Positions 2,822 to 45,728 of a DNA stretch of 64,000 nt are shown one piece after another. The stretch covers positions 25,916,001-25,980,000 of the forward strand of contig OZ024743.1 in the NCBI GenBank assembly GCA_964016885.1, written 5' to 3'. Source of the stretch: Eledone cirrhosa (taxonomy: Eukaryota). The notes under the pieces were generated by a model. It was not told the DNA's origin. It ran no database searches and saw nothing but the letters and a program-made list of their open reading frames with translations. The position numbers and the translations under genes are program-made. How positions within the stretch are numbered: position 1 is the stretch's first letter; each line of letters starts with the position of its first letter.

Positions 2822-5800
2822 TCACCTATAGTCTGATGTAGAGTGAAGGCCCATCACACGGGCCATTCTCGCCACTTTCACCCATCTTTCATAGAAACGG
2901 CTGGGATGCAGCACCTCTCTCTCCATCCTAATCCTTCTTCCGAAATGATATCGGAAGAAACGGACCAGTTGTTGGCCAGAGAGAAAGGTGTCTGACCTCA
3001 GTCCTTTCAGACGCGTCCACCATACAACCTCTTTCGCCATGGCTATTACGCACAGAAACACCGCCTCTCCTTCGTTTTTGAAGAGGGGAGGCGGCTTGAT
3101 CGTTACAACAGACTCGGTGGTCAACCGGATCGGTCCCACCCTTGACAGCAGTTGTTCGACATAGCCCCACAGATCGGCAATGCCCGAGCAGTGTACCAAT
3201 GCGTGTGCAACGGTTTCCTCGTCGCACACGCATCTGGGACAGACCTTTTTCGATGGGTCCCTACCCGGGCGCCCGTGTCTGTAGAGCCTTTCTCGAACGG
3301 GCAGAGCCCTTCTGTAGCATTGCCAGGCCAGGGACCTCTGGAAGTTATCCATGGGTCCCGGGCTCAATGTCCTACCGAACAGGTTGGCCAGTTCGTCTTC
3401 CTCCATGCCTAGGGCTTCTCCGAGGGCGCCGTCGCACCTGCTAACCACCAGCCCTCTATAGAATGACGAGGTGGATTCTCCACTGACAGCCGGGTCCGCC
3501 TGCCAGAGAGCCGTGAGCCCCTGGGCACACTCGGTGTGCCAGGCGCCCAGTTTTCTCGGTCTTTGCTTGACCCAGGATTGCAGCTCGGTGAGTGAGACGA
3601 GTCTGGGAAAGGCTCGCCTCACAAACGGGGCCCACACCGGTTGACCGGAGAGGAATACCTGAAGGTGCCGTAGCCTTAATGCGTGTTTACGTATCATCAG
3701 CCACGGCATCCCCAGCCCTCCTTTCGAAGGGTGTTGACAGCAGATGGATCTCCTCACCATAGGAGCCCGCTTCTTCCAAAGAAATTGGAAGAGTGCGCGC
3801 TCCATTTTGGCGAGCGTTTCCCTTGGGCAAGGCACCACGGTCAGGCGGTAGTAGATGACGGACGCTATATAAGTGTTCGCCACCTCCGCCCGACCTTTCA
3901 GGGACAGTTTGCACTCGTCCCACTTCTGGGTCAGTGCAAACACCCTGCTCGTCACCTCACCCCAGTTCTTCTCCACCTGGAGGTCTGGTCCGAACCAGAC
4001 CCCGAGCAATTTCACCGGGCCCTCCGTCCAGCGCCCGACGACGCCATCGGAGGGCATCGATCTGCCCCTCCACGTGCCGAGTTGCAGACCGATCGACTTG
4101 TCCCGGTTCAGCTTAGCCCCTGTAAACCTTTCGTACTCCTCCAGTAAGGTGCCGATCGCCTCGATTTCCGAAGCCGTCGACACCATTACTGTTACGTCAT
4201 CGGCGTAGGCTGACACCGCTTTCCGCAATCCCGGTTCCAACGGGATGCCCTGCAACAACTCTAACTTCCGCAGCAGTGGCTCTAGAGTCACTACATACAG
4301 AAGGGAGGAGAGAGGGCAACCCTGTCGGATGGACCGCGCGATTTCGAACGGCTCCGAGAGGTAGCCGTTCACCTTGACCCTAGAGCAGATGCGGCTGCTG
4401 TGCATGGCATTGATCCAGCCCCTGAAAACGGGTCCGAAGCCTGCCGCCGCTAGCACCGCATCCAGGTAACCATGGTCGACCCTATCGAATGCCTTAGATT
4501 GATCCAAGTTGATCAGGGCCCCACCAAAGCCGGGTTCGTTCCCAACCCTCTCTATGATGTATCGCATGAGGTGGAGGTTATCGTGGATGGACCTGGACGG
4601 GATAGCACATGTCTGCGCATCTCCCACCAGGTTTCCCACGACAAGCGCCAACCTCTTTGCTAGCACCTTGGCCAAAATCTGTAACTCTGTATTTAGCAGA
4701 GTTATGGGCCTGAAATTATTTATATCGTCCCCCTTGTTCTCGTCCTTCCTCACTAGCGTGACTACGCCCTTGGTCACAGCACAGGGAATTCTCCCGTTCT
4801 GTCGCCAGTTGCAGTAGACCGCCTCGAGGAGTTCGGGGAACAAGTCCGGCATAGCTAGATATAGTTCGTATGGAAGACCATCGAGACCCGGGGATTTGCG
4901 TTTGCCGCATTGGCTCAGCACGTCCTCTATCTCAGCGGCTGAAATCGGCTCCTCGCAGGACTTCGCCTCCCTGTCCGAGAGACGCGGCAGGCCGTCGAGG
5001 TATGGACCGAAGCCCACGTCCCCAACCGGCCCCCCGCCCCTTCCGAACAATTCGGCAAAGTGCTTTTGAAAAGCCTCGCACATCTGCTTAGGTTCAAGGA
5101 TCACCCGTCCATCCTGGTCTCGCAAAGACCGGATAGTGGATCTGCTCCCTCTTTTGGCTTCTGTCGCGCGGGCGCAGCTAACAGCTTTGGTCCCCTCGTT
5201 TCCCAGAGCACGTATTTTGCTTCGGACGAGGCAGCCTTCGTGTTTCGCGTCGAAGAACTGGCCCAGAGCCGTTCTCGACGCTAGCACTCTGGCCACGTCG
5301 CCGCTTCTAATTGCCTCTTCTACACTATCTACCAACTCCCTTTCCTTCCTATTTCTATTGGAGGCTAACTCCTTACTAAATTCTATAGAGACTACTCTAA
5401 TCTCTCTTTTGAGAGATCCCCACCACCTGCTGTTGACGATGGCGCCCGTCGACCGCTCCTTAACTAAAGTGCTAATCCGGTTCCTGTAAGCCTTACTTGC
5501 CGGTAAGGACAAGTTGAGCTTCCAGTAACCGGGTCCCTGTCTATGAGTTCTGTCAAGGTTGACCATGCAGGTCACTAATTTGTGGTCTGAATAGCCAACC
5601 ATGCGCATTTTTGGACAACTTAAAAAGTCCTTATCCTTAATTCTAACTAAGAACCTATCTAGGTACGACCTAGATGTTCCGCTACGATTTGCCCAAGTCC
5701 AGGTTGGCGCAGTAGGAAAATCTAGTTGATATCTATCGGCCAGGTCAAATCGACCGATTAACCCTTTGAGGCTATTACACCCCTCTCTATCGGGACAGGC

Positions 5801-6262
5801 CCCTACGTAGTCCCAGCGTGCATCTAGGATACCATTCCAGTCCCCCACTAATAGCAAGGAGCGGGACGTCCCTAGAAAAGTCTCCAGACGATGGAAGAAG
5901 TCCGACCGCATTGACCCGAAAGGGCCGTAGGCAGCTACCAACCTAAACGCTCCGCCTTTACCACTGCCAAGGTCCAGAACCACTAGTCGACCCTCCGGGT
6001 CCAAATGTACTATCTGTGTTGCGAGACCCAGATGTTTTTGCAGCAGAACGACAACTCCACCCCCACCTCCGGGCTGACAGAGAGATGCGTGCATCTCAAA
6101 GTCATCAAAGGTGGGGGCCAGCTGTCGCACGTTGCTGATCCGGGCCTCGCAAATAACCATCACATCTATACGTTGTGACCTGAGGTCATTTAGAAGCATT
6201 GCTTGCTTCCAAGTTGAGCCCAGGCCACGCGCATTTAAACAGCCTACTCTTAGCATAGCCAT
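2822..6262 (-). CDS. Tx1/L1 ORF2: APE endonuclease + reverse transcriptase + C-terminal Cys/His zinc motif, uninterrupted
   Basis: LNARGL, GDWN, SYLDRFL, SDH (APE); KSPGLDG, NFRPITLLN, DQSKAFDRV, RQGCPLS, AYADDV (RT); CPRC..ETVAHALVHC. First ATG is at 6262 (ORF track starts at GTG 6286). Confidence 0.95.
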   Translation of the reverse strand: MAMLRVGCLNARGLGSTWKQAMLLNDLRSQRIDVMVICEARISNVRQLAPTFDDFEMHASLCQPGGGGGVVVLLQKHLGLATQIVHLDPEGRLVVLDLGSGKGGAFRLVAAYGPFGSMRSDFFHRLETFLGTSRSLLLVGDWNGILDARWDYVGACPDREGCNSLKGLIGRFDLADRYQLDFPTAPTWTWANRSGTSRSYLDRFLVRIKDKDFLSCPKMRMVGYSDHKLVTCMVNLDRTHRQGPGYWKLNLSLPASKAYRNRISTLVKERSTGAIVNSRWWGSLKREIRVVSIEFSKELASNRNRKERELVDSVEEAIRSGDVARVLASRTALGQFFDAKHEGCLVRSKIRALGNEGTKAVSCARATEAKRGSRSTIRSLRDQDGRVILEPKQMCEAFQKHFAELFGRGGGPVGDVGFGPYLDGLPRLSDREAKSCEEPISAAEIEDVLSQCGKRKSPGLDGLPYELYLAMPDLFPELLEAVYCNWRQNGRIPCAVTKGVVTLVRKDENKGDDINNFRPITLLNTELQILAKVLAKRLALVVGNLVGDAQTCAIPSRSIHDNLHLMRYIIERVGNEPGFGGALINLDQSKAFDRVDHGYLDAVLAAAGFGPVFRGWINAMHSSRICSRVKVNGYLSEPFEIARSIRQGCPLSSLLYVVTLEPLLRKLELLQGIPLEPGLRKAVSAYADDVTVMVSTASEIEAIGTLLEEYERFTGAKLNRDKSIGLQLGTWRGRSMPSDGVVGRWTEGPVKLLGVWFGPDLQVEKNWGEVTSRVFALTQKWDECKLSLKGRAEVANTYIASVIYYRLTVVPCPRETLAKMERALFQFLWKKRAPMVRRSICCQHPSKGGLGMPWLMIRKHALRLRHLQVFLSGQPVWAPFVRRAFPRLVSLTELQSWVKQRPRKLGAWHTECAQGLTALWQADPAVSGESTSSFYRGLVVSRCDGALGEALGMEEDELANLFGRTLSPGPMDNFQRSLAWQCYRRALPVRERLYRHGRPGRDPSKKVCPRCVCDEETVAHALVHCSGIADLWGYVEQLLSRVGPIRLTTESVVTIKPPPLFKNEGEAVFLCVIAMAKEVVWWTRLKGLRSDTFLSGQQLVRFFRYHFGRRIRMEREVLHPSRFYERWVKVARMARVMGLHSTSDYR

Positions 6263-6286
6263 GTTGGTGGTGAAGAGAAAAGGCAC

Positions 6287-8035
6287 TTACCTCTCTGCGT
6301 CCCGGGTATCGGGCTGCACAATTTCCATTAGGGTGGGGGATGGGTTGTTGGGTGGGGTGGTGGTTTGTGGAAGTGTAGGGGCATCAGTGTGTTGTGTGGT
6401 TGGGGAGCTTGGAGTTGTGTGGGTGTTTGGGGAGGGGGTGGGATAGTTTTTTAGGAGGACGCGGTTAATGGGCCCGACGCAGGGGGGACCCACGTCCTCT
6501 TTAAAATTGTTTTATAGGTGTCCTGTGGCGCCTTAATCATTTTGAGGTGGGGGAAATCCCCTGCCTGGGTGAAGTTAGGCCCTTGTGTTTTTATTAGATT
6601 GTTGTTGTACACAATGTTTAACAGTTTTTTGTTTCTTGTGTTTATGTATGTGTATGCATGTTTTTGTTTTTGTGTGGTGTTTTTTGTTTGCTGTTGTTGT
6701 AAGCTCTTTTGTGTTGGTGTCAGTGTTATGTTTTGGGGAGGGGTTGTTTTCATTTGTGTGTCTGAGGTGTGTTTTCTTTTTTTTCTTTTGATTGTGTGGA
6801 AGTGCTCCTCCTCGTCTGACGACGAACTAGGGTCATCTTCCGCGTTGGAGGGGAGGGGTATATTTTCGGGTTGTGTTTGCGGTGCGGGTGTTTTGGAAAT
6901 TGTTTTTGTTTTTTGAGTGGAGGGGATGGGTTGGACATTGTTTTGTTTTGGTTTGAGCTGTGGTGGTTGTTTTTGTAGTGGTAGTTGTGGTGATTGTGTT
7001 GGTTGTGCAGTTGTTGGTGGTGTAGGCAGGATTGGTGTTTTATTATTAAGTTGGGGACAGACAGCCCTCAGGTGACCTCTGGTTCCGCAGAGGTAACACG
7101 AGGGCCGTCTACCCTCAACGGTAATGTTGATGAAGGTTAGATCATCCAGTATGACGCGTTCAGGGATCTGGGCGATCCTTTCGGGCCTCATTTGAACTAC
7201 AAGTTCGAGGCTCGTTCCACTGAACGCGTCACCCGATGCCTTTCCCATGGACACCAGCATGTCATCCTCCAGGTCCAGGAAACCTGTCAAAACCCACCAT
7301 ATGTCCATAATCGGCAGGATGGTGTGGATTTTTATTTTTTGTGTTCTTCTACCCATGTACGTAGGGTAGAAGGTGTATGCGGTGGATGTGATTGGTTTGA
7401 TGGACAGTTTCACTGCTGTGTCCCTGTCCTTCATGAGAATGGATAGACTCCCGTAGAGTCTATCCTTCTGAATGAAGGTGATGTCCTTCATGACGTCTTT
7501 TAAAACCAGGTCTATCTCACTCTGTGATGGTTGAGCTGGTTTTTTACTTTTATTCGAGATTGTCCTAAACATGACCGTGTTTAGGAGTCTCTGGCTTTTT
7601 AGTTCCGGGGGGGGGGGGGTGGATTGTGAATGAACCATTTTCCCCGTACACTATATATTTTTTTGCATCTGCCAGTAGCTCCTTCGCTTTGGTTATATCT
7701 ACTGGCAGATAGTCGAGGGTTTTCCTTGTCGTCTCGGCGAAGGAGAAATTTTGTTTGTTTGTGTTGTTGTTGTCGTTGGTGGTGTTGTTGTTATCATTGT
7801 TGTTGTTGTTATTGTTATTGGTGTTGTTTTCGTCCGTCGCATTGTTGTTGTTGTTGCCGCTGGTTCTTTGGGTTGTTGCCATGGCAACGTCAAGTTGTCG
7901 GTTAACAGGTGGAGAGAATTCTTCCTCTGGCTGACCTTTCTTCTTGACCTCTGCTACTGTGACAGTGGCAGGGGGAAGCTGTAAGTTTATCTTCCCCTTT
8001 CCTCCTTCGAATTTTGGTGAAGAAGCTTCGGCCAT
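6287..8035 (-). CDS. Tx1 ORF1 (gag-like nucleic-acid-binding protein) split into three frames at homopolymer runs
   Basis: ORFs 7565-8035, 6451-7638 and 6287-6493 overlap at G13 (7607-7619) and G6 (6482-6487); zinc knuckle CYLCGTRGHLRAVC; Pro/Thr/Gln-rich C-terminus. Confidence 0.75.
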
Positions 8036-19585: not shown

Positions 19586-19658
19586 TTTATTCTATACCCT
19601 TTGATTTGTATAGAACTTTACCTCCTTTTCAACTAATTATATATATATACACACACAC

Positions 19659-19747
<89 letters not shown>

Positions 19748-19753
<6 letters not shown>

Positions 19754-22700
19754 TAACAGATTAAAGTTTAAGCAAAGAATCGCTGCTTTCACCCTTAACG
19801 GGATCTTCTGAAACTAACAAAGTCAATCTGTGAATGCAGAAGTGAATATTTCAAAAAACGTTGCAACCGGAGGAAGACAGGAAGACAGGAAGACAGGAAG
19901 ACAGAAAAACGATACTTTGGTTCGTGGAAACGTTCCCTGGCAAAGAACGGGAAAAAACGAATATAATTCGTCATTATTTGGAGCGGTGAAAAACAATTAC
20001 ACGCAAAGACAAAACCACGTTAATGGTATAAAAGAAGTCGTAGACAAATATTCTATTAGGTGGTTCATAGAGACGTTCTCAGGCAATGAACGGAAAAAAC
20101 GAAGATAATACGTCATATGTGCAGCGAGGAGAACAATTGCACGCAAAGACAAAACCACGTAAATGGTATAACTGAAGTCGTAGACTAAAATTCTAACTAG
20201 GAAACCGAATGATTCTCGGCTTCAGAGTTAAGAATAAAGTAAATAGAATACAGAGGTAATTGAAATAAATACATACACCCATCCAAGACGTACATACACA
20301 AGCATACGCGAAAACACTCGCCATAGGTATACAAATACACGCACGTACACAAAAAAAAAATCCACATGCACATACAGAACCCACTCAACGCCTGTACCCG
20401 CACGCATACGAATGTATAGACCAAATACACACAAAAATATATATAAAAATATATATATTAATACATATATATGTGTGTGCGCGCGTGTATACATATAATT
20501 AAATAAACAAATAAATAAATACGTATATAACAAGCGCACACACATACCTACATGCAAATACACATATGTCGGAGACGTACGTCAACCAAAACACGAAATA
20601 CACATATACACACACCCTACATACGTACGAACCCGCATACTCACACAGACGCAAAACTCACGTATACACATAACCACAAGCATATGTACCACAATATATA
20701 ATATATACGCCATAACACATACAATCAAATATACGTACGAGGAAGTATTACGTACCTTCATAAAACATACAGGTAATATATACTTACCTATACAAATAAG
20801 TAATGGTATAAACAAAACATATATTTAGCTACCACATCAAGACGTAAAATATCCGCGTATAGTTCGTACTATCCGTTAGGGTATAATGTGGGGCTGTAAT
20901 ACAGGAACGTTTTGTGCAATTTATGTTTTTAAGCTGAAATTGCTTCAGATTTTTTGTTTAAGATGTGGTCTTTGGCGTAGAGTATTTCCAGAGCCTCAGC
21001 GGCGCAGAGGTCACATGGTCTTTTATTTCCGTTATACAATCTAGCCCTAGCAAGGATCTCCCAGTGTAACTTATATTGGGTATGGTTATCTTTTAGACTC
21101 CAGATATAAGCTGAAAGGGACGTCATATTCCTTCTTAAAGGGTAACGAAAAGAATGGGTAGGCATGTAAAGACGCTGCTTGAATCTATTGGCGGTTAACC
21201 CTATGTAGGCCCTACGGGACGTGGGTGTTTTAACCTTACATTTGTAGACAATGTTACTAGAGAGGCATTTCCCGGATAGGGGGCAGTCAACCCGATTCCT
21301 ACAATTACAGTTAGTACTAACTACAGGGTTGCACGTGTTCCTACGGCTAGGTAGTTTAGCTAAATTTGAAGCTGTGATGTTATGTGCAAGGTTAGGAGTC
21401 GTAGAGTAAGAAATTTTAATAGTATTTCTATTAAAAATTTTACTATATTTATGTGTAGGGGGAAAATGCACCATAATAAGGGAGAGAAAGATCTTAGCTA
21501 ATGGTATGGCCACCTCCATATTATATGGTGGGTTATACCATATAATGCGTCGGGATCTATTTCTTCTAGGTCTATTCTCGTACTCTCTAAATGATACCTT
21601 ATCGACAAATCCACTCCGAGCAAGAGCTTCATTGTAATATGTGGAATGGTCGTTGAAAATATGCTCGTTAATAGATAGACGGGAAAGCCTCAAAGAAACG
21701 TTTCTTACCAGGTTCTTGGTTATGCTGGCAGGATGGTTAGAAAGCTTACTTATGTAATTAAGCGGATCATTCGGCTTTCTATACGGGTAATGAAAGCCAT
21801 TCGATAAATTGATGGTAACGTCGATGTAATTAACGACAGAGAGGTTGGCCTCAACTTGTATGGAGAAGTTGAAGACTTTAAAGAAGGCTGTGAGTTCTTT
21901 TCTGAACCTGTCGCAAGCACGTGGGCCGCACTTAGTCATGGTCAAAAGACCATGATCACGGTACAAACCACCGCCCACGTTGGGGAATTCTTCCTTGATA
22001 GAGAAAAGAAGGAAAAGGCTGATAAGATCAGTAACCTCCGCAAAATCACTGGTGCCCATACTCACGTGGAATAGGGTACTATTGGATTTTTTAATCCAAA
22101 TAGAGTCGTCGAAATTAATCACCGACTTACGGGCATTGAGAATGACATCAACTTCGAAATCCTTAACCACTGTGAGTGTTTTAGCGAAATTGATAGCTCT
22201 AAAGAGAAGTGGTAAAGTGATGGAGGAGTAGTAATTATTGATGTCGAATTGGATAAAACGGCAATGTTCCTTGTTACATATGCCGTTGAACCAATCAATC
22301 ACCACGAAAGAATTGTTCCACAGTGCAAGAGGGGCCAAACTTCTAATTTCAGGTATAATTCTATCAAGAATCCTTTTACTAAGTCTAGCTAAATCGGACT
22401 TTGTAGGGTTAATAAGCCGAATAGAAGGGTTGTTCGGAAAAATGGATTTGTGATCTTTCAGGGTAAAGTGGGGAGAAATATGGTCCAGAGTTCAGTCCGG
22501 TCCAGGATGTTGAGATCAGAGGTGATTTTAAACCCAGCATCGTTGATTTTATAAATGATGCTCCGATTAGTTTTACGGTAATCCTTAGTTACAGCATTAT
22601 GTAGCAGTTGATGGTAAGTACTGCGCTCCACTTGATATAGATTCCAGTTTTGTCGGAATGGACGTGCACGGCATTAGAATCCTTAATAGAACGAATTCTA

Positions 22701-23430
22701 TTCTTCAGGTCCTGCTGGAAAGAATTGCTCCTATTCCGAAATTTGATACTCCGTATGAGTTCCGAGACATCATTTTCGAAGGGTAGCAATGCTGGGTTAC
22801 TCAGAGGGTTATTATAGGTTTTAAATCCAAATTTATCCTGTTTGTTGTCTGCTTTTCCCTGATTATCGAAATAAAAGGCTCGCCAACGCAACCTTTTAAT
22901 GAACGCGTCTGTTTTCTGTATCAGGAGTTTTAGGTATGTTTTCCTGCTTGGTACGGGTATGTTCTTTGCAGAAATATTCAGATGTTTCTGCATGATGAAT
23001 ATAAGTCAATAGAGTGCTCAACCGAGGGACCCATGCGTGCAATTGTTCTCCCCGCTCCACATATGACGTATTATCTTCGTTTTTTCCGTTCATTGCCTGA
23101 GAACGTCTCTATGAACCACCTAATAGAATATTTGTCTACGACTTCTTTTATACCAAAAACGTGGTTTTGTCTTTGCGCGTAATTGTTTTTCACCGCTCCA
23201 AATATTGACGTTTTATATTCGTTTTTCCCGTTCTTTGCCAGGGAACGTTTCCACGAACCAAAATATTGTCTTCCTGTCTTCCTCCGGTTGCAACGTTTTT
23301 TGAAATATTTACTTCTGCGTTCACAGATTGACTTTGTTAGTTTCAGAAGATCCCGTTAAGGGTGAAAGCAGCGATTCTTTGCTTAAACTTTAATCTGTTA
23401 TTTTAATAAATATTTGCTCTACGGTTCATA
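19748..23430 (-). mobile_element. Penelope-like retroelement, Naiad type, in (TA)n; 3' pLTR (19748-20195) and inverted pLTR copy at the 5' side (23036-23430)
   Basis: RT + GIY-YIG ORF; the two terminal segments are reverse complements; both ends abut (TA)n. Confidence 0.9.
20869..22993 (-). pseudogene. Naiad/Penelope RT-GIY-YIG ORF, frameshifted, with catalytic YRDD changed to YRDH
   Basis: KNIPVPS..FIKRLRWRAF; TLKDHK..RLINPTKS; QFDINNYYSSI; GLYRDHGL; IIWYNPPY; CNCRNRVDCPLSGKCL; IVYKC..YIGLT..FKQR; CDLC. Confidence 0.9.
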
Positions 23431-42442: not shown

Positions 42443-42637
42443 CGAAGGAAATGTGGTAAGGAACCAGGTGGACCATAACGCACCAAAGTACTCAATACTT
42501 AGGGTAATAGAGTGGGTAATAGGAATGAGTAGGACCCCGACGGCTGAGCTCAAGCCGTTTCGACGGCTAATTCTGGACAGTCCAGAATTAGCCGTCGAAA
42601 CGGCTTGAGCTCAGCCGTCGGGGTCCTACTCGTTCCT
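42441..42637. mobile_element. (TA)n-flanked element ending in a near-perfect ~120-bp palindrome
   Basis: 42519-42578 versus 42581-42639. Confidence 0.85.
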
Positions 42638-42743
42638 ATATATATATATATATATATATATAACGAAAGGAGCTGTGTGGTTACTAAAAACAAGGTTTAG
42701 GATGGTGGTTAGGACGGAACAAGAGGAGAAAGGAAGAAAGGAG

Positions 42744-42859
42744 TTTCCATCATCAGCTGTAAATGTTTCCCGATCCGATGTTTCGGCGCTGAATTACAGG
42801 ACATCGGTGTATTTCGGGTGCGCCCGAGGCCTTTTATTAATCAAAAGGCCAAGTGGAAA
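42744..42859 (-). ncRNA. Candidate permuted, pseudoknotted hammerhead ribozyme inside a ~220-bp (TA)n-flanked element (42662-42880)
   Basis: CUGAUGA, GAAA and GUC cores; stem III ccgatgt/acatcgg, stem I ctgtaa/ttacag, plus ggcgc/gcgcc, cccga/tcggg, tttcca/tggaaa. Confidence 0.75.
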
Positions 42860-42953
42860 AGGAGAGAGAACGAAAGAGAATATATATATATATATAAGTC
42901 CCGGATTCAATTGGGGTTAACCAATACATTAGTAGAGTGTATACAACAAAATG

Positions 42954-43286
42954 TAATATAGAAATTGCTTCTAAAGGACTAGAACTGTTTCATTCGAAGG
43001 AAATCCCCAGGAGAGCCATCCTTGTGATTGCCTTCGAATGAAACAGTTCTAGTCCTGTAGAAGCAATTTCTATATTAAATTTCAATCGGGGGTTCAATCG
43101 GGAGTAACAACAGTAAGTAAGGTACTCAATACATGGCAGCGTATATATATTTATTATAGAAATGGCTTCTACAGGACTAGAACTGTTTCATTCGGGAGAA
43201 ATCATCAGGAAACCATGATCATTTCAGGCTTCCTGATGATTACTCCCTAATGAAACAGTTCTAGTCCTGTAGAAACCATTTCTATA

Positions 43287-43290
<4 letters not shown>
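42954..43290. repeat. Two palindromes of one PLE pLTR-like family with HHR-like cores; relative at 59325-59450
   Basis: aggactagaactgtttcattc and its complement; CUGAUGA..GAAAC on both strands of 43152-43290. Confidence 0.75.
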
Positions 43291-43617: not shown

Positions 43618-43810
43618 GTACATACATATATGTATACAGACGTACAGTAGTATGTATATATATATACATACATGCACACATATATATATGTACGTATGGA
43701 TTCACCGAACATTTATTATAATGCTCGGTGTGTTTGTAAACAAACATCCCGTATTAAGCCGTATTGTCCAGCAACTATCGTTGTTCGTTTGTTCAACACT
43801 GACAAAGGAA

Positions 43811-43858
43811 CGCTGTACTAGTTTCAAGCATATTAACTATTAGCTATCGTCAGCAACG
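43811..43858 (-). ncRNA. Minimal type I hammerhead ribozyme
   Basis: cgttg-CUGACGA-uagc..gcuu-GAAA-CUAG-UA-cagcg. Confidence 0.8.
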
Positions 43859-43992
43859 TATACCTTCCTGCCAGATTGTTGAACGTATATACTTACCTTA
43901 TGCATATTAACGGCTGAGTAGCCCAATTTGCATATCGAGTGGGTTAATCATAAGGTAAGTATATACGTTCAACAATCTGGCAGGAAGGTATA

Positions 43993-44033
43993 CGTTGCTG
44001 ACGATAGCTAATAAGCTTGAAACTAGTACAGCG
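43993..44033 (+). ncRNA. Minimal type I hammerhead ribozyme (PLE type, palindromic stem III)
   Basis: Stem I cgttg/cagcg; CUGACGA; stem II agct-aata-agct; GAAA; ACUAGU palindrome; GUA site at 44028. Confidence 0.88.
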
Positions 44034-44295
44034 TACCTTTGTCAGTGTTGAGCAAACGAGCAATGATGGTTGCTAGACACTACGGCTTAATACGGGATGT
44101 TTGTTTACAAACACACCGAGCATTATAATAAATGTTCGGTGAATCCATACGTACATATATATATGTGTGCATGTATGTATATATATATACATACTACTGT
44201 ACGTCTGTATACATATATGTATGTACGTGTACATACTTATATTTAAGTAACAGCTGTACTAAGAGTGGGAAATGAAATTTCGTTTCATTTTTTCC

Positions 44296-44371
<76 letters not shown>

Positions 44372-44410
44372 CTATCTATATATATATATATATATATATA
44401 TTCATATCTA

Positions 44411-44457
<47 letters not shown>

Positions 44458-44825
44458 ACCTGCAGTATTTTTCTCTATATTTTAATACATATATTTACCA
44501 CTGCGATTCTGTGTTTTTTCTCTCTCTCTTACTGTTCCCCCATTCTCTCTGTTTCTCCCCCTCTGTCTTGTCCGTTAACTCTTCCTCACACTTTCACTCA
44601 CTCACTGTTTTTCTCCCTCTTCTCTTCATTTCATCCTGCACTCACGGACGCTATTTTTTCTCTCTCTGCTCAATGGCATTCGTTCGTGCTGGACTATTCT
44701 TTCCCTAGCGCTCATATATTCACCTAGCTTACGCTAACAGAATAATTTTTGAAGCTTGTTTCTCTCCCACGGTATGCTATCTTTTCTGTTGTTCCCCTGT
44801 CTCACTCGCTTTACGCGTTTTAATT

Positions 44826-44926
44826 GTCCTAATAACTTATTTGGGTTATTATTGCACCGAAGTGAGATATATGATTTTTAATGCAATGAAATATCTATGA
44901 TCTTCGGCAAATCACTGATGAGGGAC
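44826..44926 (+). ncRNA. Candidate permuted, pseudoknotted hammerhead ribozyme (copy 1)
   Basis: gtcct/gggac, aataac/gttatt, attgca/tgcaat, ccgaag/cttcgg, agatat/atatct, tgattt/aaatca arranged around GAAA and CUGAUGA. Confidence 0.7.
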
Positions 44927-45321
44927 GTATTTTATTACATGTTACCATGTGCTACCTGCAGTATTTTTCTCTATATTTTAATACATATATTTACCACTGC
45001 GATTCTGTGTTTTTTCTCTCTCTCTTACTGTTCCCCCATTCTCTCTGTTTCTCCCCCTCTGTCTTGTCCGTTAACTCTTCCTCACACTTTCACTCACTCA
45101 CTGTTTTTCTACCTCTTCTCTTCATTTCATCCTGCACTCACGGACGCTATTTTTTCTCTCTCTGCTCAATGGCATTCGTTCGTGCTGGACTATTCTTTCC
45201 CTAGCGCTCATATATTCACCTAGCTTACGCTAACAGAATAATTTTTGAAGCTTGTTTCTCTCCCACGGTATGCTATCTTTTCTGTTGTTCCCCTGTCTTA
45301 CTCGCTTTACGCGTTTTAATT

Positions 45322-45422
45322 GTCCTAATAACTTATTTTGGTTATTATTGCACCGAAGTGAGATATATGATTTTTAATGCAATGAAATATCTATGATCTT
45401 CGGCAAATCACTGATGAGGGAC
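45322..45422 (+). ncRNA. Candidate permuted, pseudoknotted hammerhead ribozyme (copy 2)
   Basis: Same as 44826 shifted by 496; the one difference is in a hairpin loop. Confidence 0.7.
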
Positions 45423-45517
45423 GTATTTTATTACATGTTACCATGTGCTACCTGCAGTATTTTTCTCTATATTTTAATATATATATATATATATATATAT
45501 ACATATCTATCTATCTA

Positions 45518-45591
<74 letters not shown>

Positions 45592-45595
45592 CATA

Positions 45596-45728
<133 letters not shown>

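Follow-up and report, generated by a model that had tools for sequence, protein, structure and literature searches.

Does the 496-bp tandem repeat at positions 44826-45422 of a 64,000-nucleotide stretch of the Eledone cirrhosa genome (the whole of which we call the window) encode a self-cleaving RNA and, if so, how are its strands wired, what kind of element carries it and which enzyme moves it? Hammerhead ribozymes of types I, II and III (Rfam) follow the circular order C-G-S, whereas the motif at this locus runs S-G-C; the blocks S, G and C, and six permutations of them, were defined by Eckert et al. 2023 (PMC10085705). The RNA motif reported here is real and widespread; it is a variant new to the hammerhead class, and it occurs in a new setting. 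Judged on its sequence, the motif is quite likely a self-cleaving hammerhead ribozyme in a non-circular permutation, namely the Naiad-type 3' ribozyme carried by non-autonomous tandem elements, and is probably catalytic.

A hammerhead motif with a split stem II

A pair-by-pair script check and a six-helix descriptor place the first copy of the motif, a split-stem-II hammerhead in S-G-C order, at 44826-44926 of the plus strand. Read 5' to 3', its strands are Pa, hairpin, Pb, Pc, III', A17, I, UUAA, Pb', GAAA, III, Pc', I', CUGAUGA and Pa', and the six plus-strand helices are Pa (44826-30/44922-26), the hairpin (44831-38/44843-50, the whole hairpin spanning 44831-50), Pb (44851-56/44882-87), Pc (44857-62/44902-07), stem III (44865-70/44891-96) and stem I (44872-77/44909-14). 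The hammerhead core elements CUGAnGA, GAAA and UH are all present. Block S (44865-44877) holds the III' strand, U16.1 (44870), A17 (44871) and the 5' strand of stem I, with a predicted cut at 44871/44872. It is followed by the UUAA linker (44878-81) and by block G (44882-44896), which consists of the Pb' strand, G12-A13-A14-A15.1 (GAAA, 44888-44891, G12 being 44888) and the stem III strand. Block C (44909-44926) is split: it contains the I' strand, CUGAUGA (44915-44921, C3 being 44915) and the Pa' strand, and a direct join of the strands after CUGAnGA and before GAAA does not make a stem II, which is replaced by Pb and Pa. An inserted junction module at 44826-44856 supplies the 5' strand of Pa, the hairpin and the 5' strand of Pb (44851-56), the last of which takes the place of the stem II strand normally found after A9. 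Pc corresponds to the helix through which stems I and II interact in types SGC and CSG.

The descriptor found three sites in the window (44915+, 45411+ and 42756-). The second is a further copy of the motif at 45322-45422 on the plus strand, with a predicted cut at 45367/45368; the third, at 42744-42858 on the minus strand (predicted cut 42800/42799), has the same architecture and belongs to a family that we call B, the 496-bp repeat being family A. An earlier note on this DNA had named all of these plus-strand helices and both family A cuts, and each proved to be correctly placed. Its 496-bp unit was likewise recovered, with a TRF period of 496, 2.1 copies, the second motif at +496 and three sites differing between units. 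It had also described the 42.8-kb motif as having the same helix order with all six helices different in sequence, which holds, and as unrelated and independent, which does not: the two are diverged homologues from one large family.

Energy-based evidence was unremarkable. Nested-only folding of the motif alone recovered Pa, the hairpin, Pc and III with a z-score of only -1.25, so the structural support comes from covariation and not from energy. In a 350-nt context, a nested partition function, which does not score pseudoknots, gave probabilities of 0.0 for Pa and 0.12 each for Pc and III, and these low values count against easy folding of the motif. At gathering score, Rfam had no match in the window; a test for stems I and III had none in 30 block-shuffled windows. 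The minus strand of the 496-bp unit is devoid of CUGAnGA, so a two-polarity, viroid-like design does not apply.

Families and copy number in the genome

We searched the 3.0-Gb genome assembly with the core pattern TTHA-N5,6-GAAA-N22,25-CTGAYGA, which returned 22,324 matches against 255 for the reversed pattern, an 88-fold excess; the first 100 rows held three double counts and a few chance matches. An unbiased 400 kb of the genome contained no strict match and, with a relaxed pattern, three decayed copies, in agreement with the genome-wide match density. The family A query (the motif at 44826) produced 950 candidates, and the 40 copies scored were 99-100% identical over the ribozyme; the family B query gave 947 candidates and a third family, C, met in flanks, gave 1689, with 40 scored in each case. 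Across loci, family A is 96-100% identical. In contigs assembled from four runs the ribozyme was much deeper than the rest of the unit, and the substitutions were compatible with Pc. The retrieved loci contained 107 distinct matches in 42 clusters.

Covariation supports the six helices

For a family-wide alignment (A1) we hand-picked 20 of the 42 clusters and one extra copy, giving 21 sequences; left out were six B-clade clusters with other spacing, nine that were truncated or rearranged, five that were decayed and two probable chance matches. In A1, 87% of cells were paired and 18 of 32 pairs had changed on both sides, a score as high as which was reached by 0/500 shuffles, slid controls lying at 29-44%; since kinship inflates covariation scores, and related sequences may beat shuffles without any structure, the cross-phylum cases described below weigh more than A1. 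By helix, the paired cells amounted to 95% for stem I, 96% for Pc (over four pairs, three of them changed on both sides), 90% for Pb, 89% for the hairpin, 81% for stem III, which is frequently of 5 bp only, and 71% for Pa, the weakest helix, partly through a 1-nt register shift. Stems I and III, which flank the predicted cleavage site, show double changes. The pairings of Pa, Pb and Pc were kept in a family-wide alignment, where their loss would, according to the earlier note, have refuted the fold, and covariation across the family lends strong support to its reversed-order fold and cut sites. Furthermore, U16.1 was kept in 20 of 21 rows and H17 was A or C in all 21, never G, neither position being part of the search pattern.

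Could the same core be built more simply, either as a local type II fold (hairpin stems III and I, no stem II) or as a plain type SGC hammerhead with a direct stem II? Family A does have a 4-bp local stem I, and positions 10.1 and 11.1 are able to pair in 14 of 21 A-clade sequences, but the local stem I is paired in 58/84 cells against 80/84 for the pseudoknotted one, bearing out the earlier ranking of the local fold as the weaker. As for a direct stem II, it is paired in 36% of A1 cells, which is the level of the slid controls, and has no pairs at all in family B or in three contigs introduced below (L231, L283 and L307). We therefore give these simpler folds next to no credence. Chance pairing in an ordinary satellite, with which the z-score of -1.25 and the lack of an Rfam match would agree, is effectively refuted by the 88-fold excess over the reversed pattern, by the covariation and by recurrence across phyla. 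For the split-stem-II fold itself, stem I of family A is AU-rich, and the linkers from Pc to stem III are only 0-6 nt long, implying a tight three-dimensional fit, a point of geometry that Eckert et al. also raised in the text accessible to us (PMC10085705).

The motif is carried by a young Penelope-like tandem element

TRF, family comparison and array anatomy delimit the family A element at 44456-45480 (plus strand) as two 496-bp pyrimidine-rich non-coding units with an overhang of ~30 nt, set between (TA)n target microsatellites that TRF placed at 44299-44454 on the 5' side and 45477-45726 on the 3' side. The family B element is a 5'-truncated copy at about 42662-42879 (minus strand), its full unit elsewhere measuring about 775 bp. 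Copies are 5'-truncated, lie in (TA)n, occur in tandem up to five or more units and sometimes include an inverted 5' copy. Of 11 pairs of units from the same array, 10 showed 0-4 changes and the other 52 (that array mixes subfamilies); between arrays the median was nine changes. Such near-identity within arrays fits one template read repeatedly, and it also fits read-through of a master array.

Family A copies terminate either +66 to +71 nt or +96 to +119 nt beyond the predicted cut, which defines a 3' end zone at 45433-45480 (plus strand); TA microhomology is counted in the last of these values, some arrays are repeated in overlapping loci and three rows end at the locus edge. By analogy with the Poseidon element of Anolis (Frangieh et al. 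2024, PMC11167929), where reverse transcription beginning at two internal sites past the hammerhead accounts for the tail, this zone may represent a Penelope-type tail bounded by two such start sites. Like family A, Poseidon has AT-rich targets, and in its case reverse transcription begins some 85-92 nt beyond the hammerhead cut, as computed from positions given in that paper; unlike the window element, it is autonomous and carries a canonical type I ribozyme.

The element combines the traits of retrozymes (non-coding units in tandem, each with one ribozyme, and many dispersed copies) with those of Penelope-like elements (5' truncation, inverted 5' copies, a fixed 3' zone with a tail, microsatellite targets). 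Its array anatomy shows the Penelope-like hallmarks given in the portions of PMC8557442 that we drew on, and it has (TA)n targets, tandem and inverted copies and a 30-40-nt tail in common with Naiads; from its sequence, we conclude that a young Penelope-like element of the non-autonomous kind is the host. The animal non-LTR retrozymes (bioRxiv 10.64898/2026.07.22.740005) are, like family A, tandemly repeated, devoid of coding sequence and furnished with a single hammerhead in each unit, and have been proposed to be non-autonomous Penelope-like derivatives. Where those retrozymes have a type I hammerhead, family A has the permuted form, and the preprint, as far as its accessible text goes, searched for type I hammerheads only, so that the split-stem-II class would be missed.

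Other repeats accompany the element in the window. Fold-back copies of another high-copy repeat, also found in several other loci, lie at 43148-43288 and 42950-43060 and contain a minimal hammerhead of canonical order, type I-like (CUGAUGA, short stem II, GAAAC, GUC). More long palindromes are nested in (TA)n tracts at 42470-42640 and 43680-44220, and probably represent other Penelope-like families, as inverted copies truncated at the 5' end. A near-intact LINE occupies 2822-7650 on the minus strand, with a 1154-aa frame that reads as AP endonuclease and RT and a 399-aa upstream frame, and a 38-bp tandem repeat of about 67 copies at 94% identity fills 1-2536.

The same six helices occur in Naiads and in restriction-endonuclease-type elements

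In the parts of PMC8557442 consulted, Naiads are reported without canonical hammerheads and only sometimes with "core" or "half-core" flags. We read the 54 published Naiad consensi of that paper by eye and found the six-helix form in ten (Amil, Aacu, Anas, Obim, Ovul, Esco with a partial Pb, and four others) and type CSG in six (three Nbra and three more, nematode by file order). The six-helix form lies in the 3' UTR of Acropora, Octopus and Euprymna consensi among others. The nematode CSG hammerheads, also seen by eye, are intact, have an interaction helix and are likewise located in 3' UTRs. In the passages scanned, the other 38 of the 54 consensi had no such motif, with the proviso that line breaks can hide the search word.

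Among metagenome and viral contigs, the core pattern matched at 126 loci, six of which had stems I and III; all six had a Pb of at least 5 pairs and no direct stem II. The full six-helix descriptor was matched by three of the six, compared with 0/2400 upstream-shuffled controls; two of the other three are cut off at a contig edge. The 13 pattern matches in viral contigs included no structured motif, and no Naiad relative was found there. Contig L283 encodes a 914-aa frame with an N-terminal GIY-YIG domain (aa 49-96) and Naiad-type RT motifs, and its ribozyme motif lies about 95 nt past the stop of the Naiad ORF, in the 3' UTR. A second family (L231, with L227 and L296), putatively of the HERO clade, encodes an RT with a C-terminal restriction-like endonuclease and has relatives in bivalves, fish and lancelets; here the motif (L231:762-880, minus strand) overlaps the stop codon of the RT ORF. 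L283 and L231 have the same six helices in sequences unrelated to the window motif, and the literature searched yielded no hammerhead in the restriction-endonuclease-type (REL-type) clade. In addition, a split-stem-II motif at L318:288-410 (minus strand) is at the 3' end of a restriction-endonuclease-type non-LTR element (upstream frame by eye), and L307:243-351 (plus strand), a contig known from 300-nt flanks only, has a full six-helix motif.

These hosts bear on the possibility that the motif acts as a dimer: strands exchanged between two tandem copies would ease the tight geometry between Pc and stem III. Tandem arrays are common in Eledone, and minimal Penelope hammerheads reportedly cleave as dimers. 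However, the motif stands as a single copy in Naiad and REL 3' UTRs, stem III is non-palindromic in most families (it is palindromic in L283), and single-copy SGC RNAs cleave in cis (PMC10085705), all of which leaves a dimer very improbable. The 3' ribozyme architecture, common to autonomous Naiads (L283, and the consensi of PMC8557442 read by eye), suggests that the window element is Naiad-derived.

An enzyme other than Naiad probably mobilises family A today

The window element encodes no protein, and the Naiads of this genome are decayed: the RT of L283 detected Naiad remnants at 30-48% identity, mostly with stops, together with numerous matches at 26-28% with long open frames. No clear motif was found behind ten Naiad remnants in the genome, and blastn of families A, B and C against the Naiad remnants of this genome gave no match. 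In about 1 Mb of retrieved loci no RT match was plausibly upstream of the motif, the one hit being a probably nested Hydra fragment. Short-pattern genome searches for Naiad coding and ribozyme motifs returned no matches for three patterns and five for one; a further Naiad short pattern, with 21 genome matches, was read as detecting a Neptune-type family. A GIY-YIG search of 30 loci and seven further stretches retrieved only Neptune-/Poseidon-type elements with a C-terminal endonuclease and no permuted motif, and canonical type I motifs were present at some of these loci.

Copies of family A remain 96-100% identical between loci while the Naiads have decayed, so another enzyme probably mobilises the family today, as far as sequence can tell, and a Neptune-type enzyme is the most likely candidate for the present driver. 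The Neptune-, Poseidon- and Hydra-like elements of the genome have a C-terminal endonuclease and, where readable, a canonical type I ribozyme, and Neptune-type copies likewise end in (TA)n. Similarity between family A and Neptune 3' ends was weak and confined to a low-complexity tail (E 0.007-0.02), and we do not count it as evidence. An open 1020-aa Neptune-type frame in the genome (L183:3-3062, plus strand) is a candidate mobilising enzyme. The window itself holds a broken Penelope-like element with a C-terminal endonuclease (19640-23005, minus strand), Hydra clade-like by eye and inserted in (TA)n; the canonical type I hammerhead close to its 3' end is decayed.

Discussion

In type SGC (HRIMA-1, PMC10085705), as in our motif, the blocks run S-G-C with a full core, a short linker between stems I and II, an interaction helix and a pseudoknotted core; types SGC and CSG cleave in vitro. 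The motif has this block order, a UUAA (family A) or UUCA linker and a Pc that is paired in most cells. It differs from SGC in that stem II is not made with the strand after CUGAnGA, Pa and the hairpin being inserted between A9 and 10.1, and in that the interaction strand continues into III'. An insertion inside block C breaks the assumption in PMC10085705 that this block is uninterruptible, so the motif would work like SGC yet falls outside SGC as defined, and outside the six permutations in the text of that paper available to us. Type SGC is known there almost only from metatranscriptomes and from no known organism's genome, whereas the motif has about 20,000 copies in an animal genome. Type CSG, represented there by two metagenomic sequences, has the same reversed block cycle with a direct stem II and no junction module; formally, the motif follows from CSG by circular permutation, the new opening lying within the inserted Pa helix. 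Our search of the open literature, including the accessible part of PMC7650587 and with subscription journals outside its scope, found no description of the split-stem-II wiring.

How might such a strand order form an active core? The usual hammerhead core contains the pair G10.1-C11.1. C11.1 has a G of Pb as its partner in family B as well as in the Naiad and REL examples, an arrangement that may mimic that pair. The 4-nt linker would couple stem I to the stem II strand and Pc would bind the far ends of stems I and II, as in type SGC, whilst stem II (Pb) would be completed by the upstream strand and the backbone after A9 would pass into helix Pa. Pa, the hairpin, Pb and the core G-A pairs would then make a four-way junction that splits block C. 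Within this junction, we infer, Pb stacks on the core, with Pa stacked on the hairpin. Folding would begin with the nested scaffold of Pa, hairpin, Pc and III, after which I and Pb would dock as two half-turn pseudoknots.

Copying would proceed by target-primed reverse transcription (TPRT) at (TA)n targets, from a start 65-115 nt beyond the cut. The template may, at somewhat less than even odds, be a cut and circularised monomer, the alternative being uncut read-through RNA. The release of a 496-nt monomer, which the earlier note had predicted, is not supported as it was put: according to the parts of PMC11167929 used here, the Poseidon hammerhead needed protein to cleave in vitro and cleavage was dispensable for insertion, which by analogy weakens the claim.

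The same observations raise the possibility that the main role of a genuine fold is to bind protein or to mark the start of reverse transcription, cleavage being slow, protein-dependent or lost in family A, with no unit-length RNA. Catalytic mutants of the anole Poseidon still inserted and no Poseidon reads ended at the cut (PMC11167929, in the portions available), one of nine Xenopus retrozyme dimers cleaved (bioRxiv 10.64898/2026.07.22.740005, likewise), the genomic 3' ends of family A lie past the cut, and the scaffold has a low probability in 350-nt context. Against this, cnidarian, cephalopod and REL-type hosts have retained CUGAnGA, GAAA and UH although all of the helices differ; core mutants would drift if the role were purely structural. 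We consider a signal role unlikely and continue to favour a self-cleaving ribozyme.

Taken together, these observations outline a wider scenario, possible though somewhat short of probable, in which a seventh hammerhead wiring, non-circular and with stem II rebuilt via a four-way junction at A9, would be the overlooked ribozyme of Naiads across cnidarians, molluscs and arthropods (nematode Naiads having CSG). A lineage of restriction-endonuclease LINEs would have acquired it as well, and in this genome it would have outlived the now dead Naiads it came from, in the form of ~20,000 retrozyme copies whose replication passes through circular RNA and relies on another clade's enzyme. If true, this would overturn the published statements that six block orders exhaust the hammerhead permutations and that Naiads are without hammerheads, and type I descriptors and Rfam would undercount animal ribozymes and retrozymes. 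The route between CSG and the split-stem-II form is directly testable, in either direction, by inserting or deleting one junction module. If the finding is true, non-circular RNA permutations, so far rare and environmental, would be present in animal genomes in tens of thousands of copies.
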